DNA from: a virus
Taxonomy: Duplodnaviria; Caudoviricetes
Length of the DNA: 61,383 nucleotides
Strand: one strand, 5' to 3'
Virus record (IMG/VR): IMGVR_UViG_3300036833_000473
Span: 1 to 61,383 of that record
A program made the translations under genes and the position numbers. Under the pieces are notes generated by a model. It did not search any database and was not told the DNA's origin. It was given only the letters and a program-made list of their open reading frames with translations. Every line of letters starts with the position of its first letter. The first letter of the stretch is position 1. Below are positions 2,431-51,262 of this stretch, one piece after another.

Positions 2431-2442
2431 AAATGTTTGAAT

Positions 2443-2472
2443 ATTATGGCATTTTTATCACTGATAATTCAA
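2443..2472 (-). promoter_or_regulatory. Sigma70-like promoter with palindromic operator
   Basis: Minus strand TTGAAT-18-CATAAT; palindrome TTATCA-c-TGATAA at 2455-2467. Confidence 0.55.
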
Positions 2473-2522
2473 GGTTAGCAGAGAGTGCGGGAGATGGGTG
2501 GCGCGAGGGATATCATAGGGCC

Positions 2523-4049
2523 ATGGCCACAGCCCCGGCTCAGCTCGAGTACTTCGTCAAGAACTTCGACTTCCTGCCGCCGCACGTGCAGGCGGCGGTG
2601 CGCGAGCGCCTGGAGGGCGCAATCATCGGCGACCGGCCGGAAGAGGCGCGTAACAGCTTCCTGCCCTTCGTGCGCCGCGTCTGGCCGGGCTTTATCCACG
2701 GCCGGCACCACGACGTCATGGCGGACGCCTTCGAGCGCATTGAGAGAGGGGAGCTCAAGCGCTGCATCATCAACATGCCGCCGCGCTCGACCAAGAGCAA
2801 GCTGACCAGCGTCATGTTCCCCGCCTGGTACCTGGGGAAACATCCAGAGAAGAAAATATTCGAGGGCAGCCACACGGCATCGCTCGCCATGGACTTCGGC
2901 CGGGATCTGCGCAACCTGGTGCTGACGCCGGAATACCAGAAGGTCTTCCCGGGGCTGCGCCTGGCGCAGGACTCTCGCGCCGCGCACCGCTGGAGCACGC
3001 ACGTGGGCGGCGAGTACTTTGCCGTCGGCAAGACCGGCGGCGCCGCCGGCCGCGGCGGGGACCTGGTGATTCTCGACGACCCGCACAGCGAGCAGGATGT
3101 CCTGAAGAACGCCAAAGCCGAGTTCGAAAAGACCTGGAAGTGGTACCTGGCTGGTCCACGGCAGCGCCTGCAGCCCGGCGCGGCAATTCTGGTGGTCATG
3201 ACCCGCTGGGGCGAGATGGACCTCACCGGCCAGCTGATCAAGCAATACCTGGAAGACGAAAAAGAAGTCGAGCGCTGGGAAGTGATCGAGCTGCCGGCCA
3301 TCCTGCCATCCGGCGACGCGCTGTTCCCGGAATTCTGGAAGATCGAGGAATTGCGCGCCACGCGAGCCATCCTGCCGGTGGCACGCTGGCAGGCCAACTA
3401 CCAGCAGGCGCCGACCAGCGAGGAAGGCGCCATCATCAAGCGCGACTGGTGGCAGAACTGGGGCGAGCCCCTGCCACCCTTGTGCGAGTACCTGGTGATG
3501 AGCTGGGACACGGCCTTCTCTACTGGCGACAGCGCCTGCCGCAGCGCCTGCATCGTATGGGGCGTATTCCGGCAGAAAACCCACGAGGACCCGCCGCGCG
3601 TCAAGACCGGCATCATTCTGCTCGATGCCTGGGCGGCGCGCGTCAACTTCCCCGAGCTCAAAAAGAAAGTCAAAGAGCTCCACGCCCAGTGGAAGCCGGA
3701 CTCGCTCGTGATCGAGAAGAAGGCCTCCGGCGGACCCTTGATCCAGGAGCTCTTCCACGCCGGCCTCTATGCCCAGGAGATGAACCCCTCTCGCTCCCAG
3801 GACAAGGTGGCGCGCACCAACGCGGTGGCCGACCTGTTTGCGAGCGGCATGATCTGGGCCCCGCTCGGCCAGCGGTGGGTGGAGCAGGTACGGGAAGAGA
3901 TGGCGGCGTTCCCGCATGGCGAGTACGACGACCTGCATGATGCCGGGGTGTGGGGCCTGTTGCGGCTGCGGATGGGAAATTTAATTCACCTGGGAAGCGA
4001 TGAGGAGGATGAGGAATGGCAGCCGCGGCCGGCGCGGAAATTCTATTGA
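2523..4049 (+). CDS. terL: Terminase large subunit
   Basis: MPPRSTKS Walker A, LVILDDP Walker B, VMTRW motif, SWDTA / IEKKASG / YDDLHD nuclease motifs; start set at ATG 2523. Confidence 0.95.
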   Translation: MATAPAQLEYFVKNFDFLPPHVQAAVRERLEGAIIGDRPEEARNSFLPFVRRVWPGFIHGRHHDVMADAFERIERGELKRCIINMPPRSTKSKLTSVMFPAWYLGKHPEKKIFEGSHTASLAMDFGRDLRNLVLTPEYQKVFPGLRLAQDSRAAHRWSTHVGGEYFAVGKTGGAAGRGGDLVILDDPHSEQDVLKNAKAEFEKTWKWYLAGPRQRLQPGAAILVVMTRWGEMDLTGQLIKQYLEDEKEVERWEVIELPAILPSGDALFPEFWKIEELRATRAILPVARWQANYQQAPTSEEGAIIKRDWWQNWGEPLPPLCEYLVMSWDTAFSTGDSACRSACIVWGVFRQKTHEDPPRVKTGIILLDAWAARVNFPELKKKVKELHAQWKPDSLVIEKKASGGPLIQELFHAGLYAQEMNPSRSQDKVARTNAVADLFASGMIWAPLGQRWVEQVREEMAAFPHGEYDDLHDAGVWGLLRLRMGNLIHLGSDEEDEEWQPRPARKFY

Positions 4050-4066
4050 AACCTGACCTACGACTT

Positions 4067-4747
4067 CTCTCAGCTACCAGGCCGCCGAGCGGGCATTCCA
4101 GTGTTAAGGCCGGGTCTCAGTTACCGGGCCGCCGGGCAGGCACTGTGACCCAACAGAACAGGGGCGCCAATGGCGGTCTCAGCTTACCACGCCGCTGAGC
4201 AGGCATTACGGCACGAGGCGATTATCATCGGTTTCGTCCCAGCTACCACGCCGCTAGGCAGGCACTGCAGAACAAATGCCGAAACGGTCTCGAGCAACCA
4301 GGCCGCCGGGCTGGCACTGCGATTTTACACCATCTCCCAGCTACCACGCCGCTGAGCAGGCACTGCGACGATCACGCGCAATGAGCGCATAATCACGCAT
4401 CCACTGAGTCCCAGCTACCAAACCGCTGAGCGGGCATTGCGACTCGGACAAGAGAATCGATGCTGTCTCGTCTCAGTTACTAAGCCACCGAGCAGGCAAC
4501 TTCCAAGCCTCCGTTATCCGGGTCTCAGTTTCCAAGCCACCAAGCAGGCATTGCAACCCCGCAAGCGCGGTGCGGCGCGGATCCGGTACGTCATCTCGGT
4601 TACCAAGCCACCGAGCAGGCATTGCAACACGGCGTAACTATCTCAGCCACCAAGCCACTGAGCAGGCGCTGCAACCTCCCGTGAAAGATTGTAAGACGTC
4701 CCTGAAAGGCTGTCTCAGCTATCACGCCGCTGAGCAGGCACTGCAAC
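4067..4747 (-). CRISPR. CRISPR array, 12 degenerate 36-37-bp repeats and 11 spacers (10-38 nt)
   Basis: Repeats start at 4067, 4114, 4176, 4236, 4287, 4334, 4408, 4470, 4522, 4593, 4640, 4712; minus-strand consensus GTTGCAGTGCCTGCTCAGCGGCTTGGTAGCTGAGAC with 3' hairpin; 10 bp from the effector stop codon. Confidence 0.92.
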
Positions 4748-4757
4748 AGTCCCTATT

Positions 4758-6503
4758 CTATACTGTTGATCCCATGCCCTCCTCTCCCTCGCTTGGCGAG
4801 CGGTCCCCGGAACCCGGCAAAATCTCCGGACTATCTGACTGATTCTTCGTCGGTGCCGCCTTGCCGCTCGCCAGCAGATTGATGGCCGCATTATGGTCCT
4901 GATCCCAAAGCTCACCGCACTGACCGCAGCGGTGCAGCACGCTGGCCGCCTGGTCCCAGACCTCGGCGTGCCCGCAGGCGTGGCAGGTGGAAGTGCTGTA
5001 GGCCGCCGGCACGATGCGGACTTCAACTCCCTCGCGCTTACAGGCGTTCACTACCGCGCCGCGGAAGACCGAGGGACTGAGCATCTGGCGGTAGCTGCCA
5101 ATGGTTTTATTCTTTTCATCTTCCTTGGGCTCGGCCACCTGGCGCAGGTCGAACTTCTCGAGGATGACGGTGGCGTATCTAGCCGCCAATTGAGCGGCAA
5201 AGATGCGGTACTGCTCGCGCACGCGCAGGGTCATCTGGTCCTGCTGGTTGCGCCACCAGTTGGTGAGGTGCAAGTATTGCCTGCGCCAGCTGGTGGCGCT
5301 CGCAAATATCTGTGCGTCCTCGTCCAGGCGATGGTCGCCCCACCAGCGGATCAGGCTGGCCAGGCGGTCGCCGCTGCGCCATTGCGCCAGTGTCAGAGTG
5401 CGGCGTTGCCACTCGCTATCGAGCGACTGCCCGCCCAGCCACTTCACCAGCTCGGGCTGAAACTGGTCGCGCGCGCAGTCGGTAATGGAGCGCAGGTCGT
5501 TGACCTTTTTGAATTGCGCGATGTCGCTAGCAGGAACCAGCACCTCGCTATGGCTGCCCGCGTCATCCTGCCAGTAGGCCACACGGCCGCCGGCAGGCAG
5601 GAGGCGCCAGCCGATGTCGATGGCTACGGCAGCGCCGGGGTTCTTGACGGGAACCGGCGGCAGAGCCACGCTCACGTTCAACGCCCATTGCACCTTGCCG
5701 GCCAGCAGGCGCCGCGTGGCGCTGACGCTCTTGATGCGCGCCAGAGGCGGGATGTCGCGATGGTAGACGATGGGCAGGCTTACCCAGAGGGGCGTGCGGC
5801 TCTTCTCGCCGGAGCCGATACGCACGCGCGCGTAGCGCCACTTTTGTCCCGGGGTGGCACTGTCGATCTGGAAGAAGGTGTGCGGCCCCTCCACGCAGGC
5901 TTCCACGCTCGCGCCGTCAATGATCTGCGCCGTAAGCGTGCCCTCGCCGCGGAAAGAGCGGTACTTGAGCTCGCCCAGCTTGCGGCCGGTGTCGGCCGAC
6001 TGGATGACGGCGTTATAAGTCCCCCAGAACAGGCCCAGGCCCTTGGGGCCGGCCGCCCGCCGCGCGCGCTTAACGCGCCGGTTGCGCAGAGCGTTGAGCG
6101 CGTCCAACTGCTCCTGGCGCGCGGCGTGGCGCGCCTTCTGGGTGGCCTTCTGGTGCTCGAGCAGCATGCCGAGAGCGGAGCGTACCCGCGCCAGCTCGTC
6201 GTCGAGGTCGGGAGTCGCGACCTTGGTGCGGGCCTTCTGGCTCCGCGTCTTCTTCTCTTTCCAGAGCGCCTCCTTGCGTTCGCGCAGCTTCTCGATCTCC
6301 ACCTGCGCCTCGTCGCTCATGACGCGCCGGTAACCCGCGGTATGGTAGCGCTCGACGGTGACCAGCACGTTCCACAGGCGGCGCGCCAGGCGCATCTGCA
6401 CCAGCGCCTGGTCTTCGTTTAAGACGGGCGCGATGCGCGCGGGAACCGTGCCGTACTGGTAAACCATGGAACGCGTTTTCTGAGAGTCCTTCTGGTGTTT
6501 CAT
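4758..6503 (-). CDS. cas12m: Type V CRISPR effector, Cas12m (V-M/V-U1)-like, 581 aa
   Basis: LFWGTYNAV, FRGEGTLTAQI, RVRIGS, WVSLPIVYHR, RuvC-I AIDIGWR, RuvC-II ILEK, Zn finger CHAC..CGQC, RuvC-III DQDHNAAINL; adjacent array; RBS GAAAGG. Confidence 0.85.
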   Translation of the reverse strand: MKHQKDSQKTRSMVYQYGTVPARIAPVLNEDQALVQMRLARRLWNVLVTVERYHTAGYRRVMSDEAQVEIEKLRERKEALWKEKKTRSQKARTKVATPDLDDELARVRSALGMLLEHQKATQKARHAARQEQLDALNALRNRRVKRARRAAGPKGLGLFWGTYNAVIQSADTGRKLGELKYRSFRGEGTLTAQIIDGASVEACVEGPHTFFQIDSATPGQKWRYARVRIGSGEKSRTPLWVSLPIVYHRDIPPLARIKSVSATRRLLAGKVQWALNVSVALPPVPVKNPGAAVAIDIGWRLLPAGGRVAYWQDDAGSHSEVLVPASDIAQFKKVNDLRSITDCARDQFQPELVKWLGGQSLDSEWQRRTLTLAQWRSGDRLASLIRWWGDHRLDEDAQIFASATSWRRQYLHLTNWWRNQQDQMTLRVREQYRIFAAQLAARYATVILEKFDLRQVAEPKEDEKNKTIGSYRQMLSPSVFRGAVVNACKREGVEVRIVPAAYSTSTCHACGHAEVWDQAASVLHRCGQCGELWDQDHNAAINLLASGKAAPTKNQSDSPEILPGSGDRSPSEGEEGMGSTV

Positions 6504-6703
6504 ATAGCTAACCTTTCTTTCTTTTTCCCTTCGAGCATATGATGCTCGAGTCCGCCGAACTCGCCGGCCCAGTCGAGCAGGTTGGCGAGCCTCTGGCCGA
6601 CGAACTTGCGCGCGAGCGGCGCGGCCTTGACGATGACTCCATCGCGCGTAACCACCTCGATGGTGAACACGCGGCAGCTGATCCAATGCGTCAGTTCTTT
6701 CAC
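6500..6703 (-). CDS. Small phage hypothetical protein
   Basis: 4-bp overlaps with both neighbours. Confidence 0.7.
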   Translation of the reverse strand: MKELTHWISCRVFTIEVVTRDGVIVKAAPLARKFVGQRLANLLDWAGEFGGLEHHMLEGKKKERLAI

Positions 6704-6919: not shown

Positions 6920-7276
6920 TTACCCTTCCTCTGACTCTGGTAGAAATATTACCGCGGCTTTTTTCAGCCGCCGCAGATAATCCTGATCGGCGGTTTTGGA
7001 GGGCGCCCATCGAAAGCGGGCTCCGCCGAAAGTCTCCTCCACTTTCTCAAGCAAGCCACATTCAAAGAATTTCTTGGTATGGAGACTGACCGTTCGCCGA
7101 GGTCCTTTCAATTCGGTGGCAATGTCAAGATTGGAAAACCATCTGGTCCGACGAGCGCTGCTGAGCAGGTGGTAGACCTTAACTTCTGGCTCTGAGATCT
7201 GATCCATGCGCCAGACTGTACCACTACGTAGCATGGCTTGGAACGGCTTGGTATAGACAGGCGTATACGTCCTCAC
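6920..7276 (-). CDS. Winged-HTH protein
   Basis: WFSNLDIATELKGPRRTVSLH...GLLEK pattern. Confidence 0.6.
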   Translation of the reverse strand: MRTYTPVYTKPFQAMLRSGTVWRMDQISEPEVKVYHLLSSARRTRWFSNLDIATELKGPRRTVSLHTKKFFECGLLEKVEETFGGARFRWAPSKTADQDYLRRLKKAAVIFLPESEEG

Positions 7277-8954: not shown

Positions 8955-9152
8955 TCAGATCGCAGACCCGCTTATGTTCCCGCTCGCGCTGGATTTTCTC
9001 CCCAACTTTTCATGATCCCTTAGGGCAGTGTTAATCGCGTGAATCAAGAATGCCTGCTGACTTATGTCCAGGTGAAAGCAAATCGTGCGCAGGCGATCAC
9101 GCATGTCTTTATCCATGCGAATCGTCGTCTCGTATCTTTTCCCTGAGCTCAG
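8955..9152 (-). CDS. Arc/RHH-like DNA-binding protein (start uncertain)
   Basis: TTIRMDKDMRDRLRTICFHLDISQQAFLIHAI. Confidence 0.5.
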   Translation of the reverse strand: MSSGKRYETTIRMDKDMRDRLRTICFHLDISQQAFLIHAINTALRDHEKLGRKSSASGNISGSAI

Positions 9153-10075
9153 ACCTTTACCTCGTAGTCGCGCGGCGGCACCTCCCCGCGCGCCTTCGTC
9201 CCGCGCGTGGTCATCGGGGTCCACACCAATTGATGGTACTTCCCGAATAAGCCCGCGCCCTGCCGGTAGTCGCGGAAATGCCCGCGGCAGATATGAAGCG
9301 CCTTCGCCAGGCCCACCTCGCCACTGCGACCTTCGCGGCGCAGAATCTGCTTCAACGGCTCGATCACCAGCGTCTTGTATTTCACCGGCCAGTGGCCGGT
9401 GCGCTCGTGGTACTTCTTGGCAAGCGGCAGAGGCATGCGCTCGTCCTGCTGCACCACGTTGTGGCAGTGCAAAAACGAGATGGCGAGCAAGGACGGGTGC
9501 AGCCACGTCATGAGCGCTTTCATCAGCCCTTCCTCTTGCGGAGTCGCCCAGCTGTGCATGGAAGGCGCGCCGAGCAGTGCGCCGGCCTCATCGATCGCCG
9601 TGGCGATGGTGCCGTGCGGCCCCTGAATGGCCGCGCCATGTTGGCCGTAGTCCACGAACAGCTCGGCGACCATCACCCAGTGCGCGCCCGCTGGAATGTC
9701 CTCGCCGACCGCGTCTTTCGCAAGACCGGCCAGGAACAGCACGCCTATGCGGCCCCTGGAGATGCCCAGGTGGCTGATGTCGCTGTCGCCGCACTGCTTG
9801 CTGTGGATGCGCGTGGCGAGCTTGTGCTCCATCCAGAACGCTGCGAACGGCGGCGCGATGTTGGGGAAGTCCTTATTGAAGCTCCAGACCTCCTGGTCAC
9901 TAGTCTCATAGTAAAAGCGGGCCACGTTGTCGATCAAGATCACCGGCAGCGGCTCACGCAAGAGCTCGATGGTGCGCCGTGCGTGAGCGCCCCAGTCGCT
10001 CTCGCGGTAGGCAGCCACGAAGCGGGGCATCTCAAGCTTGGGAGCGACGCGTAAGTCGTCGATCAGGCGGGGCAT
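9149..10075 (-). CDS. Hypothetical protein with C-terminal HxxRGH..W.P motif
   Basis: LHICRGHFRDY...LVWTP, resembling the tail of the adjacent AcrVA2-like gene. Confidence 0.75.
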   Translation of the reverse strand: MPRLIDDLRVAPKLEMPRFVAAYRESDWGAHARRTIELLREPLPVILIDNVARFYYETSDQEVWSFNKDFPNIAPPFAAFWMEHKLATRIHSKQCGDSDISHLGISRGRIGVLFLAGLAKDAVGEDIPAGAHWVMVAELFVDYGQHGAAIQGPHGTIATAIDEAGALLGAPSMHSWATPQEEGLMKALMTWLHPSLLAISFLHCHNVVQQDERMPLPLAKKYHERTGHWPVKYKTLVIEPLKQILRREGRSGEVGLAKALHICRGHFRDYRQGAGLFGKYHQLVWTPMTTRGTKARGEVPPRDYEVKV

Positions 10076-10103: not shown

Positions 10104-11246
10104 TCACATCACCCTGTGGACGGTAGGGATGATCTCACCATCCGGCCCCACAGCTACCGCAATTGGCGGAATCCACTTTACGATCAACTCTCGCGGCGGC
10201 ACTTCCGGCTTGCCGACCGTAGCCTTTGGCCCGGTCCAGAATGAGTGCCAGTGCGCCCGCCGAATGTGTGGCCGCGGACTCGCGTGAGTGCCGCCACCGT
10301 CGCCGCCGTGCCCTATGGCGCTGGCAGCGGCGCGCAACGTAGCGCCGATCCGGAACGCCACCTCCCAGACCTGCGGCGCATCCGAGACGAAGGTGCGTAC
10401 GCCGCCGCGCCTTGTCTTCTTGGTGATCGACTTCCGCAGGCCGCGCAATGGGTCCTGTGCTCTGATTTCTGCGGAGGTGGAGCAAAGATAAACCGCGAGG
10501 CTCAACAGTGGCTCCAATACCTCTCTGACCGACTGCGGCAGAAGCACTCTCTCGCATTCCTCGCGACTTCCAAGGCTTTCCACAAATCTCTCAGAGAACT
10601 GATACCCCGCCGGGTGCTTGGCGCGAATCTTAGCGTCCATCGCTGTCAGGCACTGGAGTAAATCGCTGCCCTCGCGAAGCTCAAGCGTGTAGGGCGCAAG
10701 CCCAATGCGATCAGCGTTGATGCGATCAACAGAGCCAAAGTCTAAAGCCATCATGAGCGCTGGGCCTTCGCCGGAATGATTCATGTGAGCGAAGAAACCG
10801 TATGCTTCTTGGCCGGGGTGGTCGCTGGACCGTAGAAGGCGCGGCTCGGGAAACGCCACATAGACGCACCAAGCAGGCAGCCGGTGTAATACGTCGATGG
10901 GGAGCTTGCCTTCGATTGGAGTTTTCCACAATTCTTTGAAGACTGTCTCATCGAAAATGTAGATGTCTTTGGTGATGCGCCAACTGCCAAGGGTGGCGAG
11001 GAAAGCGCCTTCCATGTTCAGGAAGCCGAAGTCTCGCGCGCCGCCAAGAGCAATAATTCCCTTAGCGCCGCCCCACGGCAAATAGCACCACGGCGGCCAC
11101 TCGAAACGTTTACTTATCTCGTCGCGGTTGGCGCGCAACCTGTCCACATGCTTCCAGACGCCGGGATAGCGTTGCGCAAATGCGGTCACCAATTTCACCG
11201 GCCGCCTGACCCTTTCTTCAGTCGATTCCAAAGGCCATTTGGTCAT
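10104..11246 (-). CDS. AcrVA2/FinQ-family protein (anti-CRISPR-like)
   Basis: GSWRITKDIYIFDE, LPAWCVYV, YLCS, WEVAFRIG, PRPHIRRAHWHSFWTG, KWIPPIAV in the order recalled for AcrVA2. Confidence 0.78.
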   Translation of the reverse strand: MTKWPLESTEERVRRPVKLVTAFAQRYPGVWKHVDRLRANRDEISKRFEWPPWCYLPWGGAKGIIALGGARDFGFLNMEGAFLATLGSWRITKDIYIFDETVFKELWKTPIEGKLPIDVLHRLPAWCVYVAFPEPRLLRSSDHPGQEAYGFFAHMNHSGEGPALMMALDFGSVDRINADRIGLAPYTLELREGSDLLQCLTAMDAKIRAKHPAGYQFSERFVESLGSREECERVLLPQSVREVLEPLLSLAVYLCSTSAEIRAQDPLRGLRKSITKKTRRGGVRTFVSDAPQVWEVAFRIGATLRAAASAIGHGGDGGGTHASPRPHIRRAHWHSFWTGPKATVGKPEVPPRELIVKWIPPIAVAVGPDGEIIPTVHRVM

Positions 11247-11466
11247 GCGGCGCGCCTCGCTCCTGCGACAAGTCGCAGATCTCCTCAAAGGTTAAAAGCT
11301 TCTGGACGTCCGCGCCCTGCGCCAGGGTGTTGCGGAAGGCCTGATACTCGCTCTCGCGCATCACCAGCTCGCCGGTCAGGGCGAAGCTCACCAGATCATC
11401 GGAGACGTAGACCCTCGCGTGGACATGGCTACCCAACCGTTTGGAATGGATGCGTAGCCCGATCAC
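11218..11466 (-). CDS. Hypothetical protein
   Basis: GTGA overlap with upstream small ORF. Confidence 0.55.
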   Translation of the reverse strand: MIGLRIHSKRLGSHVHARVYVSDDLVSFALTGELVMRESEYQAFRNTLAQGADVQKLLTFEEICDLSQERGAPHDQMAFGID

Positions 11467-11615
11467 GCCGCACCCCGCATGGGAAGCCCGCGGCGCCGCA
11501 GGCAGGCCCAGCAAGCATAGTGCTCCATCCAGGCCTGGATGGCGTAATCCCACACCAGCACCAGATGCAGATGCGCGTGGTCGAGGGCCAGGTGGCAGTC
11601 GAAGCACGAGCGCAT
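11463..11615 (-). CDS. 50-aa Cys/His peptide (not in ORF track)
   Basis: MRSCFDC...CWAC...MRGAA; TAATG and GTGA couplings. Confidence 0.5.
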   Translation of the reverse strand: MRSCFDCHLALDHAHLHLVLVWDYAIQAWMEHYACWACLRRRGLPMRGAA

Positions 11616-11947
11616 TACGCCGCTCCTCGCATAGCAATCACCTTGCCTTTGCGCTTCAACGGGTCGGCGATCCCGTACGCGATCGGGTCGAAGTAAGCCG
11701 TCAGATGCAGAGTCGGGTTCTTGCGCCAGATCTCGGTACTCAGGAAGTCATAATACGAGTTGCGGCCCTCGCGGGTAATGTGAAAGCCTTTGCCGGGGCG
11801 GTAGCTGACGTACTTGCGGATCAGCATGGAACGGAAGGGCCGCTGGTCGAAGCGCCCGGCTTCCTCGAGGCTCATGAAGAAGTCCGTCGGCTGCTCGCCG
11901 AAAGCTTTCAGCATGGTGTATTGCAGGTTGGACAGTTTGATGGTCAT
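11615..11947 (-). CDS. Hypothetical protein, wHTH-like
   Basis: GFHITREGR motif; ATGA overlap. Confidence 0.6.
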   Translation of the reverse strand: MTIKLSNLQYTMLKAFGEQPTDFFMSLEEAGRFDQRPFRSMLIRKYVSYRPGKGFHITREGRNSYYDFLSTEIWRKNPTLHLTAYFDPIAYGIADPLKRKGKVIAMRGAA

Positions 11948-12342
11948 GCGGCCGGCCTCTCTTTCATTTTTGCCTGTCTGCCTGCCAGCATTTTCGCCAG
12001 CCGCTCCTTTCGTTTGCGCGGCGACATCGCAGCCCATTCTTTTTGACGCTGGCGGCCAAGGGCGGTACTCTGGACCGACGTGCGTGGTTTGGCCTCGCCG
12101 CGCGCGACCGCCATGCGCCGCCTCATCTCCGTGCTGCGCTCCTCGGGCGTCAGAGACGCCCAGCTCGCGCCGCCGCGCGGGCTTTTGGGTTCAGGCTGCG
12201 CGCCGCTCTCCTGTACGTGGGCCAGCAGGGCGCGCATTTCGTCCAGCTTGGCCTGCATGACCTCAATGGTGTACTGCATGCCGGGCAGCAGGGCGGCGAC
12301 GCCCATGGCCGCGTAGCGGTTCTGTTCGGGGTTGACCTTCAT
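11944..12342 (-). CDS. Basic hypothetical protein
   Basis: Two WAxLT/MSP.ER-type repeats; RBS AAGGA; TATAAT upstream. Confidence 0.65.
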   Translation of the reverse strand: MKVNPEQNRYAAMGVAALLPGMQYTIEVMQAKLDEMRALLAHVQESGAQPEPKSPRGGASWASLTPEERSTEMRRRMAVARGEAKPRTSVQSTALGRQRQKEWAAMSPRKRKERLAKMLAGRQAKMKERPAA

Positions 12343-12504
12343 CGCATTTCCTTCGCACTCCTTTTCCAACCCGAGCCTAAAACGGGTTTCGAAGCTTTCG
12401 AAGGCCATTATACGCATTCCGGGAAATAAAGCGACAGGAAATTCAAGTTTTAAGAATATTTGAATTCAGGCAGGGGTATTTAACCGGACAACCGGACAAT
12501 CGGT

Positions 12505-13806: not shown

Positions 13807-13848
13807 GGTTTTACCTCCTAATGCGTGCCGGGGTTGTGAACCGGCCCT

Positions 13849-13873
13849 CCCGCATTACCCCCGCTAATGCGGG
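13849..13873. terminator. Intergenic hairpin
   Basis: CCCGCATTA / TAATGCGGG inverted repeat, no clear U-tract. Confidence 0.35.
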
Positions 13874-13886
13874 GTCACTCTGCGAT

Positions 13887-19592: not shown

Positions 19593-21367
19593 TTCGGATC
19601 TCCTTCTCTTGTTTTGGTGTATTTGGCAAATGGAAAATTACTTGCCGGCAGCAGCCAGCGGCTTTGTTCCTGGATATTAGGGCCACGAACTCGCTTACGC
19701 GTGGCGCCGATTAAGCGCAGCGCCTGCGTGATGGCGTTGAGGGAGAGTTTCTGGTTGGCGTTGCGTTCCAGCCAGCTCATGAGATGCAGCGGGCTGACGG
19801 CTACCAGTCCTTCGATGAGGGTCGGCAGGTTCCGGTTTTGGAACGGTTGCCCGTCAATTTCGGGGATAAAGGGGTTTTTATTCAGGTATTGGTCCAGCTG
19901 GATGCGCATGTTGCCGGCGGCATGGTTCTCCGGGCCGCCGTCGATCTTAATCAGGGCGTCCAGCATGTTCTGCGCGAGGATTGACCATTCGGCGCGTTTG
20001 AAGGGGCGCAGAAAGTGCTCGAGTTCACTGGTGGCGAGGGCTAGGCGCAGCGCGTCCTGGTTAATCAGCGTGTGCGTGTCTTTCAGCCAGATCGACCTGC
20101 CATCGGCCAGGTCCAGTGTGTAGCTTGGGTTGTCGCCGGTGATTTTGCAGATCCTCAGCAGTGGCGGGATCTCGAGGTCGCGGCCTGCCTGGCCGGCGAG
20201 CCGTGCCTTCGCTATCGCTGGATCGGCCGGTGGCGGCGCGCTCGCTGCGGCCGCCTCGGGAGGTGCTGCGGCATCTGGCGCCGCCTTCTGTGCGGGCGCT
20301 GCCGTGCTGTTACCGGCTTCTTCTTCGGTCTCCTCGATTTCTTTTTCGCTGGCGGCGATGCCCCCGGTGGTGATGGAGCCGCGGGTGGCGCCCTTGGACA
20401 GGGTGAGCAGGTAATAATTCAATTTGGTGCGTGCCGGTCGCCCGTCCTTGCGGCGGTGCTGGACGATTAGGTCGATAATTTGTTGCGGCGCTAATTTCAC
20501 GTCGAAACCGAAGTCGGTGAGCGCCATGTCGTAGCCGGATTGCGTGCTGTCCTTCAGGTCGGTGCGCTGGCGGAGCCAGGTCCGCCGGAAGCGCTCGTTG
20601 CCCTCGAGCCACAATTCAATCTGCTCGGGTGGCAGCGCGGCGTCCAGGTTCACCCTCAGGTCGCCATTATTCTGGAATACTGCTGGTTTAGGTGCGGCGT
20701 CCTCCTGCGGAATCCCCATCTGGTCGAGGTACCACGCAAGCTCGCTCAGGTTATAGCGCGCGTCGCGCTGCTCGAGTACGGTGACGGGCCTAGGGTCTCC
20801 GGGGTCCTTGTAGTTGCGCGTGCCGGGGATGCGCATCACGCGCGCCAAGTCGCTCAGCCGGTCGAGCGCCCAGCCGCGCGCGGCCGCGCGCAATCCCAGC
20901 AGGGTCTGCCAGCGGTGGACGATGCGCGCTGCGGCGGTGCGCTCCTCGGCGCTGCCGAAGCGCGCGATCTCGCGCAAGAGCCACCAGGCGTGACACCCGT
21001 GACCGGTATCCACAATGAGCGACGGTGGAAATTCCGCGGGTATCACGCTGAGCGCTTCGGCGAGCGTGGCGGGCAGCGCCTTCTTCGGATGGATCGGTCC
21101 TGCCAGGTCGAAGTCCTGCCAGACGCCAGCGATCGCGGTGATCTCTTCCGACGGGCATCGGAAGTGTTTCCCGCGGTCGCTGGCGCTCAGGCCGACGCCC
21201 AGGTAGCAGTCCAGGTGCAGCGAGCCGGCGATCACCTGAGCGGCCTGGTTGAGGTTTTGGCGCCAGTGAGACAATTTGAGCGTGTCGCCCTGGTGCGTCC
21301 AAATGAGTACGTAATCGTCTGGGGGCTTGTCTGCCCACAGTAGGTACAAGAATTCGAGGGGCGTCAT
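19589..21367 (-). CDS. RepB-like AEP-family DNA primase
   Basis: WQDFD, VDTGHGCHAWW, DLARVMRIPGTRNYK, SGYD helical domain. Confidence 0.85.
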   Translation of the reverse strand: MTPLEFLYLLWADKPPDDYVLIWTHQGDTLKLSHWRQNLNQAAQVIAGSLHLDCYLGVGLSASDRGKHFRCPSEEITAIAGVWQDFDLAGPIHPKKALPATLAEALSVIPAEFPPSLIVDTGHGCHAWWLLREIARFGSAEERTAAARIVHRWQTLLGLRAAARGWALDRLSDLARVMRIPGTRNYKDPGDPRPVTVLEQRDARYNLSELAWYLDQMGIPQEDAAPKPAVFQNNGDLRVNLDAALPPEQIELWLEGNERFRRTWLRQRTDLKDSTQSGYDMALTDFGFDVKLAPQQIIDLIVQHRRKDGRPARTKLNYYLLTLSKGATRGSITTGGIAASEKEIEETEEEAGNSTAAPAQKAAPDAAAPPEAAAASAPPPADPAIAKARLAGQAGRDLEIPPLLRICKITGDNPSYTLDLADGRSIWLKDTHTLINQDALRLALATSELEHFLRPFKRAEWSILAQNMLDALIKIDGGPENHAAGNMRIQLDQYLNKNPFIPEIDGQPFQNRNLPTLIEGLVAVSPLHLMSWLERNANQKLSLNAITQALRLIGATRKRVRGPNIQEQSRWLLPASNFPFAKYTKTREGDPK

Positions 21368-21933
21368 GTGTCGTTATTCGCTTTCACATAATCAGCGCCC
21401 ACCCGGCGGGTGGGCGGGCGTTTCGGCGGCCGGTGTTCTTTGGTGATCCGCCACCCGTCGATGGGTGCCCCGAACCACATTTCCGCGGTGGCGCGGGCGT
21501 GGCGGGCGTAAGGGGTGGCGAACTTTTTCCGATACTCCTTGGGCTGCCAGATCAGCCACCGTGGACCAGTGCGCCGCAAAATAACCTCGATCGCAGTGGT
21601 ACTTGTGGTCTCCGTGCCTGTGCCGCTCAGCATGGCGGTGACTTCGTCGCACCCATCTAGCGGATCCGGCGGGGGCGGTGTCCAGGCGGGATCGATCAGC
21701 CCCACCGGGAAGGTCGCCATATCGCGGAAGCGTTCCCCGTCCCAGTAGGTAATCGTGGCGTCATCCATCTCCGCGTCGGCCGGGATGTCGGCCAGCTCGA
21801 CCAGTGGGGCGCCGAGCTCCTGGGCAATTTCTTCCCGGCTCTTCCCGGCGAGAGCCATGGGATAGCGGATGGACTCGCGGGCATGTTGTTGAAAACGGCG
21901 TAGCCGTGCCAGGCTGTAGAGGCGTTCGGCCAT
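21364..21933 (-). CDS. Hypothetical protein
   Basis: Operon position; ATGA overlap. Confidence 0.65.
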   Translation of the reverse strand: MAERLYSLARLRRFQQHARESIRYPMALAGKSREEIAQELGAPLVELADIPADAEMDDATITYWDGERFRDMATFPVGLIDPAWTPPPPDPLDGCDEVTAMLSGTGTETTSTTAIEVILRRTGPRWLIWQPKEYRKKFATPYARHARATAEMWFGAPIDGWRITKEHRPPKRPPTRRVGADYVKANNDT

Positions 21934-21954: not shown

Positions 21955-21990
21955 GCCTCAGCTATCAGGCCGCTGAGTAGGCATTACTGG
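21955..21990 (-). repeat. Solitary CRISPR-repeat copy A
   Basis: gcctcagctatcaggccgctgagtaggcattactgg; CTCAGC/GCTGAG stem as in the array. Confidence 0.85.
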
Positions 21991-22035
21991 TCTGAGCAGC
22001 TCGAGTGCTTCCCGGGCATTATGCACCACGCCCGT

Positions 22036-22071
22036 GCCTCAGCTATCAGGCCGCTGAGTAGGCATTATCGG
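22036..22071 (-). repeat. Solitary CRISPR-repeat copy B (81 bp from A)
   Basis: gcctcagctatcaggccgctgagtaggcattatcgg; overlaps the VRR-NUC stop codon. Confidence 0.85.
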
Positions 22072-22359
22072 TCGGAGCAGTTCGAGTGCTTCGTGTGCAT
22101 TATGCACTACGCCTGCAATAGCGCCGGCACACCGCCACTCTTTCAGGCGCGCCGTTTGCAGGGGCGTAGGGATGTTTCCGGGCCTCTTGACTTCAAGCTC
22201 AAAATGGCGGCCGGCGACCACTCCGTACAGGTCGGGATCGCCGGCTGTGCCGAGCGCGGTTCCCCAGCGCTTGCGCACCACCAGGCCCGGAATTTGCCTT
22301 AGGGCCTTTACGATCGCGCGCACCAGCGAGCTTTCCCGCGCTGGGGCAGGGCGCGCCAT
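22039..22359 (-). CDS. VRR-NUC domain nuclease
   Basis: ESSL, GDPDL, LEVKRPG..TPLQ. Confidence 0.88.
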   Translation of the reverse strand: MARPAPARESSLVRAIVKALRQIPGLVVRKRWGTALGTAGDPDLYGVVAGRHFELEVKRPGNIPTPLQTARLKEWRCAGAIAGVVHNAHEALELLRPIMPTQRPDS

Positions 22360-22363
22360 AGTT

Positions 22364-23134
22364 TTATCGCGTGGTCTCTTCGGCCGTGTAGTCGGTCGCG
22401 TCGATCATCGCTGGGGTGAGCAGCTCCTTCATCTTTTGGTGGTATGGCTTGAGCGCGCGCACTTCCTTCTCCCCCAGGCGCCGGGAGAGAGAAAGCACCA
22501 GCCGCGCGTAGGCGATGCCGCCCTCGTTGTTGGCCTTCTCGAGCGTGAGCCGGGTGATGGTGGCCCAGTAGGGGATCTGCGCGCTCAATAGCTGCATGTT
22601 GTATTGCGTAAACGCCTTGAGCGAGGTAGGCGGCACGCTCAACAGGTGCGGCAGAATTTCGCCGGGTCGCAGCAGGAGCAGTTGGCGGATGTCTTTGCAG
22701 GCTTGCCCGGCGCCGGGGTTGCCGTTGGGCAATACCGCGGTGCCGAACTGGGCGTAGTGGCAGTCGGCGCAGCGGCCGCCGGGATCGCCGATGCCGACCA
22801 GGCCGTCTTTCGAGGTGCAGTCCGGGGGCTTGTGGCCGCCTGAAAAGTTGCCTCTCCAGAACAGGCGTGCCGAGCGGAAGGCGGTCAGGATGCCTTCGAG
22901 CTCCTTTTCGGGCTGCTCGCCGGCGAGAGTCTGTACCCGGAAGGCCAGGCTGCCGCCGCTTGGCATCTGAATGCGGGGAAAGTTGAGAATTGAGAAATTG
23001 GGGCTGAGGCTTTCATTGAGCAGCTCGATGGTGCTCTGGCTGCTTTCCGGCCGCAGCAGGGCGTAGGGTTCGACCATCTCGGGGTCTTTACCGAGAGTGG
23101 CGAGGTCTTGTGGGGGTTGTGCTTGTTTTGGCAT
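22364..23134 (-). CDS. Putative ssDNA-binding replication protein
   Basis: FPRI, PPDCTS.DG, CADC..QFG, ACK, PPTSLK motifs; acidic tail. Confidence 0.6.
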   Translation of the reverse strand: MPKQAQPPQDLATLGKDPEMVEPYALLRPESSQSTIELLNESLSPNFSILNFPRIQMPSGGSLAFRVQTLAGEQPEKELEGILTAFRSARLFWRGNFSGGHKPPDCTSKDGLVGIGDPGGRCADCHYAQFGTAVLPNGNPGAGQACKDIRQLLLLRPGEILPHLLSVPPTSLKAFTQYNMQLLSAQIPYWATITRLTLEKANNEGGIAYARLVLSLSRRLGEKEVRALKPYHQKMKELLTPAMIDATDYTAEETTR

Positions 23135-23227
23135 AATAGTTGACATTCCTTTGTTGGTTAGTGGGTGTTTGACTAATCGCTGCGTCTCTGGAAGGGACGC
23201 AGCGAAAAATTGGGACTGTCCCGTCCC

Positions 23228-23263
23228 GTCCCGAGTATCAAGCCCTCGGGCAGGCATTTCAAC
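23228..23263 (-). repeat. Solitary CRISPR-repeat copy C
   Basis: gt-cccgag-tatcaagcc-ctcggg-caggca-tttcaac: same 36-nt layout, covaried stem. Confidence 0.85.
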
Positions 23264-25601: not shown

Positions 25602-26165
25602 ATGTCCAACAAAGGTTCCAAATCGGGTTCCAAGGCAGCGCCTTCGAAGAAAGTCGCGAAAGTCAAGAGTAATCGCGGGCGCAAATTAGAAAAAGTTCAA
25701 ATCAGTGTGCGGCTGGATAAGCCGTGCATGGATGTTCTTTACCGCCTGGTCAAGACGGAAGGCTATCGCATCACCGATCTTCTCGAGCGCGGCGCCATTT
25801 ACGTGTTGAGAGAAGAGATGGGCGAGTCGCCGGAGATGAAGGCCTTGCGCTTTATGATCGGCGAGATGCCGGCCAAGTCTCAGCGGAGACTGGTGTGCTG
25901 TTTCACATATTTTTGTTTGACTCAGGATTTTTCTATTACCGAGCGTCACGTTGAGGAGATGATGAACGGGATTCTCGATGCCTGGGAGCACGATCCACGT
26001 CACGAGAGATCGCTGCTGGAGTTCTACGCGCAGATGCGGGACAAGCGTAGCAAGGGTGGGGGCGAAGATGGGGATGGGAATGGGGACGGTGGCGGTTCCT
26101 CTGGTTCGCCTTCGGGAATGGCTTCGCCCAGTACCGTGGTTGCTTCTTCTCCAGGCCAAATGTAA
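25602..26165 (+). CDS. Putative transcriptional regulator (RHH-like)
   Basis: RBS AAAGGAG; KVQISVRLDK...ITDLLERG; divergent from replication operon. Confidence 0.6.
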   Translation: MSNKGSKSGSKAAPSKKVAKVKSNRGRKLEKVQISVRLDKPCMDVLYRLVKTEGYRITDLLERGAIYVLREEMGESPEMKALRFMIGEMPAKSQRRLVCCFTYFCLTQDFSITERHVEEMMNGILDAWEHDPRHERSLLEFYAQMRDKRSKGGGEDGDGNGDGGGSSGSPSGMASPSTVVASSPGQM

Positions 26166-26272
26166 ATAACAGTTGCAAAAAATACGGGTTGCTCATCAGT
26201 TTCGCCCAGTACCGTGGTCGCTTCTTCTCCAACGCCAAATGTGAATAAACAGTTGCAAAAGATACGGGTTGC
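26123..26272 (+). repeat. Imperfect tandem duplication, 78-bp period
   Basis: ttcgcccagtaccgtggt...gttgcaaaa.atacgggttgc at 26123 and 26201. Confidence 0.9.
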
Positions 26273-48952: not shown

Positions 48953-50161
48953 TCAGCTGGCGAGTGGCAGGTGGTAGTCCAGGATCCGCGTGGACTGGCT
49001 CATGCGCTCACGATAACCGGGAACGAGGTTCAGATAGTGGTTCGCCGTAATCTTGACGTCGCTATGGCCGAGCATCTTGGAGACGACGAAGAGGTTCTCG
49101 CCGCCGCTTGCCACCAGCATATTGATCGCGAAAGTATCGCGGAAGCGGTGGCAGGCGCCAGGCAGGCCGGCAAGAGCGAGAGCCTTCACCACGAGCGCGG
49201 TCGTTTCGCGGATGGCTGTCAGATATCGGCCCGCTCCCAGTTCTTCGGAAAAATTGCCGCCCGCGTTGAGGACGGCCAGCGCCTTGCGGTAGTCGCCCTC
49301 GGGTTGGAAGAAGAAGGCACCAGATCCCGGCAGCTGCCTCAGGGCTTCGACCGCAGCGAGGTTCAACTCGATGGGCAGGCCGATACGCTTGCGGGTTTTG
49401 ATCACCACGAAATCCAGGATGCGGTCCGCGCTGATCGAGGCGCGCTGCGCGAAGGTCGCATCCGAGATGCGCATGCCGCTATACACCATCAGCAGGATGA
49501 GGGCGCGGGTGCGATCCCGGTCGGCTTCCGGCATAAGCCCGATTGCCTGGATGACTTTCGCCAGGTCGGCGTGGCTGAAGGCCTCCCGTGCGTGCCCGGA
49601 GGGCTTGGAGAACGTCAGGGCCTTTTTGGCGGCTGGCGACTTCACGATCCAGTCCATTTCCTTGGCGTAGTTGAAGAACACGCGCAGATGCGTCAGGCGG
49701 CCGATCTTGGTGCGCTGCTCCCATTCGCGCCCGTACTCGCTGAAGTATTGCTCGAAGAGGTACGGCTCGACGGCGCGCAGTTCGACCACCCCGTGGGCTT
49801 CGGCGAAGCGGCGAAAGTGGCCGACGGCGGTGGTATAGAGTTTGACCGTATTGGGTGCCTTTCCGCTTTTGGCCTTAAGGAATTTGGCTTCGGCTTCGGC
49901 GATGCTCATCACGCCAGTGGTGATAGCTTGCGCCACGCCGCCTCCATCGGGGGAGTGCGGGTTCAGCATCTCGCGGATCTTGAGTTCTGCCATGCCGAGC
50001 GAGCGAGTGCTCAGGCTCTCGCGAATATACTTGCCGGCAATTCGGCCTTGTACCCAGAGTGGGCAATCGCAGGCAAGGTCCTTCGCCGTGCAGGCCGGAG
50101 CGTGGCGCCGGTAAGGGGTCAGGTGGTCGCGCTTTTTGCGTGGGGTTTGGGTGTTGGACAT
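48953..50161 (-). CDS. int: Tyrosine integrase
   Basis: SGMRISD, K, HRFRDT, LGH, HY catalytic motifs. Confidence 0.93.
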   Translation of the reverse strand: MSNTQTPRKKRDHLTPYRRHAPACTAKDLACDCPLWVQGRIAGKYIRESLSTRSLGMAELKIREMLNPHSPDGGGVAQAITTGVMSIAEAEAKFLKAKSGKAPNTVKLYTTAVGHFRRFAEAHGVVELRAVEPYLFEQYFSEYGREWEQRTKIGRLTHLRVFFNYAKEMDWIVKSPAAKKALTFSKPSGHAREAFSHADLAKVIQAIGLMPEADRDRTRALILLMVYSGMRISDATFAQRASISADRILDFVVIKTRKRIGLPIELNLAAVEALRQLPGSGAFFFQPEGDYRKALAVLNAGGNFSEELGAGRYLTAIRETTALVVKALALAGLPGACHRFRDTFAINMLVASGGENLFVVSKMLGHSDVKITANHYLNLVPGYRERMSQSTRILDYHLPLAS

Positions 50162-50373
50162 GAGGTCAGTATAGCCCATTCCCACACATGAAATTCGTAC
50201 GGTATTTTTGAGGTTATTGAAAACAGGAAGGTTAGCGTGTACGAAAATACTAGAAGGTCTTCTTCAAATTGCATTTACAATCTACGATATATCTTTAGTA
50301 TCAATATCTTAGCAGTCACCATAATCACCATTTATCCCATCCATTGTACAACCTTGTACGCCCGGAGGTCCCC
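50162..50373. other. Candidate attP region
   Basis: AT-rich non-coding stretch beside int with four GTAC-core boxes. Confidence 0.45.
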
Positions 50374-51196: not shown

Positions 51197-51250
51197 TTGA
51201 GGCTTTTGAGGCTTTTGAGGCTTTTGAGGCTTTTGAGGCTTTTGAGGCTT
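51197..51250 (+). repeat. Perfect 9-bp tandem repeat (TTGAGGCTT)x6
   Basis: Directly visible. Confidence 0.95.
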
Positions 51251-51262
51251 TTCGACGCGTGA

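Follow-up and report, generated by a model that had tools for sequence, protein, structure and literature searches.

What does a phage gain from a relative of AcrVA2, an anti-CRISPR protein directed against Cas12a, when it also carries a type V effector of its own? The question is raised by the IMG/VR virus record IMGVR_UViG_3300036833_000473, analysed here over its whole length of 61,383 bp (hereafter, the window), in which a minus-strand gene for an AcrVA2-like protein lies upstream of a gene for Cas12m (coordinates in Table 1). We found that the AcrVA2-like protein genuinely belongs, over its full length, to the AcrVA2/FinQ family. Its gene is an accessory one in what is most likely a temperate soil phage, and its homology with AcrVA2 makes the protein a probable polypeptide-directed, translation-coupled silencer of the messenger RNA (mRNA) of one target.

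The open reading frame (ORF) is intact. Initiation at a TTG at 11288 would lengthen the protein by 14 residues, but alignments with homologues begin at about residue 8, in agreement with a start at the ATG at 11246. In a phmmer search of 177,635 distinct PDB sequences at a threshold of E ≤ 10, the sole match was AcrVA2 (7ci1_A, E = 1.6e-15), which aligned in two colinear stretches (query residues 68-155 and 244-341). The PHROG profile phrog_6160, annotated as of unknown function, matched residues 15-366 with its positions 7-318 (312 of 322 profile positions covered, E = 1e-39). Full-length close homologues were found at 55-69% identity, and a precomputed Pfam tag, PF26125.1, is attached to an identical database protein (P0002) and to all 120 homologues listed. 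A Pfam-A scan of the protein returned no family at E ≤ 1 and is uninformative, as the Pfam copy used contained no PF26125 model. A PADLOC scan gave no match for the protein and none for the product of the downstream gene, g9149. The protein is a member of phrog_6160 and of Pfam PF26125, from which no difference was seen, and the gene is, on present evidence, an ordinary new member of an already known, catalogued and very large family.

Structure comparison gave the same assignment. The AlphaFold2 model, built on 32 relatives, had a predicted local distance difference test score (pLDDT) of 81.2 and a predicted template modelling (TM) score of 0.80. A Foldseek search with this model returned AcrVA2 (7ci2_A) with E = 3e-14, a probability of 1.00 and TM scores of 0.54/0.64, the next match having E = 1e-2. 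VIA-align returned AcrVA2 with Z = 22.2 and a root mean square deviation of 3.4 Å over 271 residues, followed by an entry with Z = 2.1. The protein is thus predicted to have the three-domain fold of AcrVA2. A preliminary description of the window had named the product AcrVA2-like after six motifs that appeared colinear with AcrVA2. This identification is borne out by significant matches in both profile and structure searches, and at least six colinear invariant blocks are common to the protein, the Moraxella phage orthologue and a FinQ-annotated plasmid protein. The resemblance is far above chance.

The residues on which AcrVA2 activity depends are conserved. In AcrVA2, the substitutions W79A and D89A cause a moderate loss of function, and H286A, R288A and H291A diminish Cas12a down-regulation while preserving Cas12a binding (Marino et al., bioRxiv 10.1101/2022.11.29.518452). 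All five residues are retained in the window protein as W89, D99, H327, R329 and H332, the last three forming its 'HxR' motif; the mapping was read from the HMMER alignment to 7ci1_A, in which PDB chain indices run one ahead of the residue numbers. Invariance was assessed in an alignment of 32 family relatives (A1), in which these five residues are invariant, as are R90 and Y96; the invariant columns number 24, with every mutationally defined residue among them. A second alignment (A2) combined the protein with the Moraxella phage orthologue, the FinQ-annotated plasmid protein and five relatives. W89, H327, R329 and H332 are retained in both the FinQ-annotated protein and the Moraxella phage orthologue, and D99 is replaced in FinQ. 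No counterpart of AcrVA2 D195 could be mapped in the window protein.

Conservation is unevenly distributed along the chain. The most conserved stretch in the family comprises residues 316-345 (mean identity to the window protein 0.72), and the most variable one residues 136-245 (0.12-0.24), which matches the finding of Marino et al. that the C-terminal part is convergent and the N-terminal part divergent among family members (bioRxiv 10.1101/2022.11.29.518452). Judged from the alignment, this pattern would fit a protein that couples an unchanging effector motif to a recognition part that varies. The C-terminal RPHIRRAHWH stretch was poorly modelled by AlphaFold2 (pLDDT 38-59), as might be expected of a segment that becomes ordered only on a partner.

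The action of AcrVA2 itself is described in some detail. The protein recognises an LSKT motif that lies among residues 1-30 of the Cas12a polypeptide, and the resulting loss of mRNA needs translation and is indifferent to codon choice (bioRxiv 10.1101/2022.11.29.518452). According to a 2026 editorial on the later, published version of that work, the C-terminal part of AcrVA2 associates with ribosomes and polysomes, and the mRNA is degraded by a recruited cellular ribonuclease, not by AcrVA2 itself (PMC13728456). The family is estimated at ~1,800 orthologues, typically found in places without Cas12a, and other targets have been proposed for them. The example given is FinQ, a homologue on IncI-type plasmids that inhibits F transfer and lowers transfer-gene mRNA (bioRxiv 10.1101/2022.11.29.518452). 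What the preliminary description said of AcrVA2 and FinQ agrees with Marino et al.

By homology with AcrVA2, the variable N-terminal and middle parts of the window protein would most likely serve to recognise one particular target protein by a short sequence in its nascent chain, and the invariant C-terminal RPHIRRxHWH block would then trigger destruction of the mRNA under translation. As targets, host defence proteins and proteins of rival mobile elements are the most likely, and Cas12a need not be the one. A mode of action directed at synthesis, and not at protein already made, would suit a temperate phage that holds its target down through lysogeny.

Comparison with the described systems shows how far the analogy reaches. 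With AcrVA2, the anti-CRISPR of a Moraxella bovoculi prophage (PDB 7CI1/7CI2), the window protein shares the fold, colinearity over nearly the full length and the five residues named above, and both genes are carried by a temperate phage. However, identity to AcrVA2 orthologues is only 18-23%, the window protein has 380 residues against ~322 in AcrVA2, with the extra material in the variable middle region, the equivalents of E98 and D129 are not kept, and the Cas12a context belongs to AcrVA2. FinQ, represented here by an entry annotated 'protein finQ' from a Serratia IncI1 plasmid, belongs to the same family (22% identical in A2); the invariant blocks, including RPHIRRxHWH, are common to both proteins, and both are found on mobile elements. 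In contrast to the window protein, FinQ is encoded on plasmids, lacks D99, is unrelated in detail in its N-terminal half and is directed at F transfer genes. The mammalian tubulin autoregulation offers a likeness of mechanism, drawn by Marino et al., in which a nascent N-terminal peptide is recognised and the mRNA under translation decays (bioRxiv 10.1101/2022.11.29.518452); it is eukaryotic and involves unrelated proteins, so that the analogy is one of mechanism only.

The genomic position of the gene was then considered. The window is linear, ~95% complete according to CheckV, and has a GC content of 62.7%. In addition to the terminase and integrase genes (Table 1), it encodes two SU10-type adaptor proteins, UvrD-like and SNF2-like helicases, a primase/polymerase-like protein, a capsid protein, an SLT-domain protein and a ParB-like protein. 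It is most likely a temperate tailed phage, and the AcrVA2-like gene, on a virus record with structural, replication and integrase genes, lies on a mobile element. The locus was present in two sequencing runs, both of soil metagenomic DNA and one of them perhaps the source of the window; no RNA run was listed for it.

The early and replication genes form a long leftward block, in which the gene occupies a slot between the conserved early genes g11615 and g9149. Homologues of g9149, 47-55% identical, were found in 9 IMG/VR viral loci. In five of them a g11615 homologue lies upstream of the g9149 homologue; the two are ~10 nt apart in one locus (L014) and ~380-1020 nt apart in the remaining four. 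The corresponding gap in the window measures 1539 nt and contains the AcrVA2-like gene and two small ORFs. Only one of the nine loci (G001) has an AcrVA2-like gene adjoining its g9149 homologue, on the opposite side of g9149. Because the slot varies in size, one of nine loci has an AcrVA2-like gene, and GC content at third codon positions (GC3) is 0.69 in this gene versus 0.85 in g9149, we regard the gene as accessory: it behaves as an exchangeable cassette in a size-variable slot. Anti-defence genes are usually exchangeable accessory cassettes.

The composition of the gene had been described as lower in GC than that of its flanks. This holds for the immediate flanks, with a GC content of 0.593 in the gene versus 0.647 in the stretch directly upstream and 0.644 in g9149 (window mean 0.627; Cas12m gene 0.656, with a GC3 of 0.84), but not for the next gene upstream, g11615, which at 0.586 is as low as the AcrVA2-like gene itself.

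The conserved early block around the slot, comprising g11944, g11615 and g9149 (9149-10075 and 11615-12417, minus strand), has no assigned function and is common, at 47-55% identity, to nine otherwise diverse IMG/VR phage contigs. In the closest viral relative (G001), an otherwise different phage that has only a handful of genes in common with the window, the AcrVA2-like gene and the g9149 homologue are adjacent in swapped order, which suggested g9149 as a conserved partner. This candidate was rejected, since an AcrVA2-like gene is present in only one of the nine g9149 loci and a g9149 homologue in none of the seven other AcrVA2-like viral loci.

In M. bovoculi, AcrVA1 adjoins AcrVA2. In the window, the genes neighbouring the AcrVA2-like gene and the two small ORFs upstream of it have no informative Pfam or PHROG family, no search aimed at AcrVA1 having been made; the 82-aa ORF had no match in Pfam or PHROGs, and the 50-aa ORF no significant one.

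Several points weigh against the silencer interpretation. The mechanism is established for one family member only, AcrVA2, and for FinQ only lowered transfer-gene mRNA has been reported (bioRxiv 10.1101/2022.11.29.518452). The low identity to AcrVA2 orthologues leaves room for a different activity on the same scaffold, and confidence in the model is low precisely at the conserved C-terminal motif. No Aca-like regulator was recognised beside the gene in Pfam and PHROG scans of its neighbours. Finally, the scattered bacterial homologues, at most 40% identical, point to no host.

Plasmid records with AcrVA2-like homologues number 540 and phage records 13; bacterial homologues, at ≤40% identity, are spread across Planctomycetota, Acidobacteriota, delta-proteobacteria and others. 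This spread over plasmids, phages and many phyla agrees with the proposal of Marino et al. that family members have targets other than Cas12a. The host of the phage is not inferable from these homologues, as the best bacterial match is only 40% identical and the phyla are scattered. A megablast search of window positions 1-25000 against phages gave no match, and the terminase is 44-49% identical to those of Pelagibacter phages and uncultured aquatic phages. As a separate observation, single metagenome-assembled genomes (MAGs) of Planctomycetota/Isosphaeraceae carry two or three AcrVA2-like genes (L099/L107/L113, L094/L095, L097/L098) on megabase chromosomal contigs; the family is therefore not confined to obvious plasmids and phages.

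Among the alternatives, the one that survives best is that the protein is a FinQ-like weapon between mobile elements, whose target would be a gene carried by a plasmid in the same cell or by a competing phage, and not a host defence gene; we hold it possible but rather unlikely. FinQ itself, which inhibits F transfer and lowers transfer-gene mRNA, is the precedent (bioRxiv 10.1101/2022.11.29.518452). In addition, 503 of the 540 plasmid records with homologues are conjugative, and the phage carries a second probable weapon of this kind, Cas12m with its array. This explanation is, however, a sub-case of the silencer interpretation, with the same mechanism, and the present data do not separate a rival-element target from a host target.

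The second alternative concerns the Cas12m gene. The type V effector announced in the preliminary description is present. It is encoded in an ORF spanning 4758-6686, with the ATG at 6503 as the most likely start, and was recognised as Cas12m by matches to PDB entry 23vw_A (Cas12m, E = 5.5e-83) and to Cas12m2 (4e-21), to the PADLOC model Cas12u1 (5.6e-93) and to the Pfam Cas12f1-like TNB domain (5.8e-13). Its distance from the AcrVA2-like gene, given earlier as 3.6 kb, is 3601 nt (10104 minus 6503). As to the claim that both genes share an operon, they lie on the same strand with ~10 ORFs between them, all co-directional with both, and no strong minus-strand terminator was found, but a terminator-like hairpin (6971-6954, minus strand) and a ~350-nt non-coding-like stretch of low GC3 (6920-7276, GC3 0.56) lie between them, and a single operon is not established.

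Comparative searches were made from both sides. An AcrVA2-like profile was searched in 65 IMG/VR Cas12m loci together with flanking sequence (at most 10 kb); near-duplicate contigs account for several of these loci. The window control scored 5.4e-127, and no AcrVA2-like ORF was found within 10 kb of viral Cas12m in any of the 65. The whole records of the five closest Cas12m phages, searched without a positive control, contained no AcrVA2-like gene (0/5). The closest of them (L026) encodes a Cas12m 53% identical to that of the window; its g9149 homologue is placed as in the window, cas12m is followed by a repeat-like stretch, and the record has no AcrVA2-like gene. In the reverse direction, a Cas12m profile (window control 5.6e-195) had no match in the flanks of 87 AcrVA2-like loci, 79 bacterial and 8 viral. 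Cas12m was likewise absent from the five viral records with AcrVA2-like genes that were searched, again without a positive control (0/5). From the 79 bacterial loci, the 40 at the top of the list, one per genome, were followed up in whole bacterial genomes. Cas12m was found in one of these 40, a Thiohalomonadales MAG (G020, E = 3.4e-126), where the AcrVA2-like gene and Cas12m (L101, L169) lie on different contigs. The pairing of Cas12m with an AcrVA2-like gene is not a conserved module.

Co-folding of full-length Cas12m with the AcrVA2-like protein gave a median interface score (ipSAE, interaction prediction score from aligned errors) of 0.35 (runs 0.06, 0.38 and 0.35), against 0.00 for the best of three controls. 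The runs shared no fewer than 11% of contacts, the partner pLDDT was 74 or higher, and the result was rated as 'weak support'. Of 80 solved complexes used in calibration, 58 reached the mark, as did 2 of 110 mismatched pairs; at ≤0.60, only 7 of the 80 solved complexes pass, plus both mismatches. By this calibration, a pass of this kind is false more often than true unless the pairing was probable to begin with. The Cas12m pass may also partly reflect likeness to the solved complex of AcrVA2 with a Cas12a peptide (7CI2).

These results bear on the explanation that the AcrVA2-like protein has been retargeted to Cas12m, either as a governor of the phage's own copy, setting timing or dosage by capping synthesis through translation-coupled mRNA decay, or as an anti-CRISPR against the Cas12m of a host or rival. 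The shared strand and proximity to cas12m and its array, the action of AcrVA2 itself on a type V effector (bioRxiv 10.1101/2022.11.29.518452) and the co-fold pass speak for it. Set against them are the lack of conserved association in loci, records and genomes, including the closest Cas12m phage, and the state of the presumptive recognition site: an LSKT-like motif is not conserved in Cas12m N-termini (1 of 150 representatives), and the 'SQKT' of the window Cas12m is not present in its nearest homologues. We consider this explanation quite improbable. The earlier suggestion that the protein tunes the phage's own effector gains no support from the comparative data, the weak co-fold being its sole hint. 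If Cas12m were nevertheless the target, the protein would be the first anti-CRISPR against V-M systems, or a phage-internal governor.

The Cas12m neighbour is interesting in its own right, and is not demonstrably connected to the AcrVA2-like gene; as the data stand, their proximity is coincidental. Cas12m is described as binding DNA without cleavage and silencing transcription (PMC11013384, PMC10442227). A preprint of September 2026 names its myxophage Cas12m as the first in a bacteriophage (bioRxiv 10.64898/2026.09.14.751636); judging from the 65 IMG/VR loci with Cas12m relatives, phage Cas12m seems common. In the degenerate repeat array directly downstream of the gene, the 3' hairpin is paired in 92.9% of cells, with changes on both sides in 3 of 6 pairs, and its covariation score was matched by 47 of 500 shuffles. 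The spacers had no match beyond chance in the window, the AcrVA2-like gene included; the best, 15/16 nt (E = 0.078), lies elsewhere in the window. Two more array-type repeats, oriented like the array and with the hairpin kept, occur in an 81-nt tandem duplication at 21955-22113. The site is intergenic, flanked in the early block by the ORFs 21364-21933 and 22364-23257. Solitary repeats, a mini-array and guide-like regulatory units for Cas12m are all conceivable identities.

It is very unlikely that the protein is a canonical anti-CRISPR against the Cas12a (type V-A) of the host, as AcrVA2 is. The homology to AcrVA2 with all residues required for function kept would allow it, and AcrVA2 inhibits divergent Cas12a orthologues through their conserved N-terminal motif; however, family members typically occur where Cas12a is absent (bioRxiv 10.1101/2022.11.29.518452). 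The low identity to AcrVA2 orthologues argues in the same direction, the parts presumed to confer specificity being the most divergent. In the phmmer alignment, AcrVA2 E98 and D129, which contact the Cas12a 620-636 peptide, are aligned with K108 and S141.

Least probable of all is an AcrVA2 scaffold with a different or lost activity and no mRNA silencing, for which the low identity to the sole studied member and a conserved motif whose biochemistry is not yet defined (bioRxiv 10.1101/2022.11.29.518452; PMC13728456) might be cited, but the ORF is intact, its 24 invariant columns over 32 relatives include all mutationally defined residues, and the full-length homologues at 55-69% identity argue for purifying selection on the same function.

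Table 1. Features of the window; positions are window coordinates, or residues of the AcrVA2-like protein where so marked.
Feature	Position	Strand	Evidence or remark
Large terminase	2433-4049	+	
Array of 12 degenerate ~35-nt repeats with 3' hairpin and irregular 12-39 nt spacers	4068-4752	-	Directly 3' of cas12m
Cas12m (type V-M, formerly V-U1) effector, 581 aa	4758-6503	-	PDB, PADLOC and Pfam matches
Conserved early gene g9149, 308 aa, phrog_20769; bounds slot downstream	9149-10075	-	phrog_20769, E = 1.5e-17
AcrVA2/FinQ-family gene, 380 aa	10104-11246	-	phmmer, phrog_6160, Foldseek, VIA-align, PF26125.1 tag
Codons 325-339, block RPHIRRAHWHSFWTG	10230-10274	-	H327, R329, H332 = AcrVA2 H286, R288, H291 ('HxR' motif)
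Codons 89-99, block WRITKDIYIFD	10950-10982	-	W89, D99 = AcrVA2 W79, D89 (HMMER alignment)
82-aa ORF just upstream in slot	11218-11466	-	Overlaps AcrVA2-like start by 29 nt; read from sequence
50-aa Cys/His-rich ORF in slot	11463-11615	-	Read from sequence
Conserved early gene g11615, 140 aa; bounds slot upstream	11615-12037	-	Homologues upstream of g9149 homologue in 5/9 viral loci
Tyrosine integrase	48953-50185		
Conserved block WRxTKxIYxFD	residues 89-99		
Conserved block PxxxxxxLPxWCVY	residues 116-129		
Conserved block GFFAH	residues 150-154		
Conserved block LYLCS	residues 252-256		
Conserved block WEVxxRxGxxLR	residues 294-305		
Conserved block RPHIRRAHWHxxWxG	residues 325-339		
Conserved block KWxPP	residues 357-361		

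Several further elements were noted in the window. A type-P5 twister ribozyme (RF02684) lies at 13828-13884 on the minus strand, matching the full-length model with 57.2 bits against a gathering threshold of 37.6 (E = 2.9e-09). It lies on the strand that codes for the leftward early genes, ~2.6 kb upstream of the AcrVA2-like gene, and could self-cleave the polycistronic early transcript. Two near-identical direct-repeat pairs (31 nt and 25 nt; 78-80 nt apart) occur at 26123-26272, where the leftward early genes and the rightward structural genes diverge; an origin or a promoter/operator region may be located here. At 51197-51252, a 9-nt sequence, TTGAGGCTT, is perfectly repeated in tandem in 6.2 copies. 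A diverged, mostly 99-nt periodic repeat ending in GCCAACCAGCAG (5-6 copies, 54892-55378) lies inside a 788-aa ORF (53939-56305, plus strand) without a Pfam family, which is probably a repetitive tail or tape-measure-like protein.

For a family of this size, one target, Cas12a, is known in molecular detail, and each well-placed member may therefore teach how targets are chosen. The gene described here is an intact copy with all functionally defined residues and with relatives at 55-69% identity, carried by a Cas12m-bearing phage, which makes it a reasonable candidate for finding a second target of the family.

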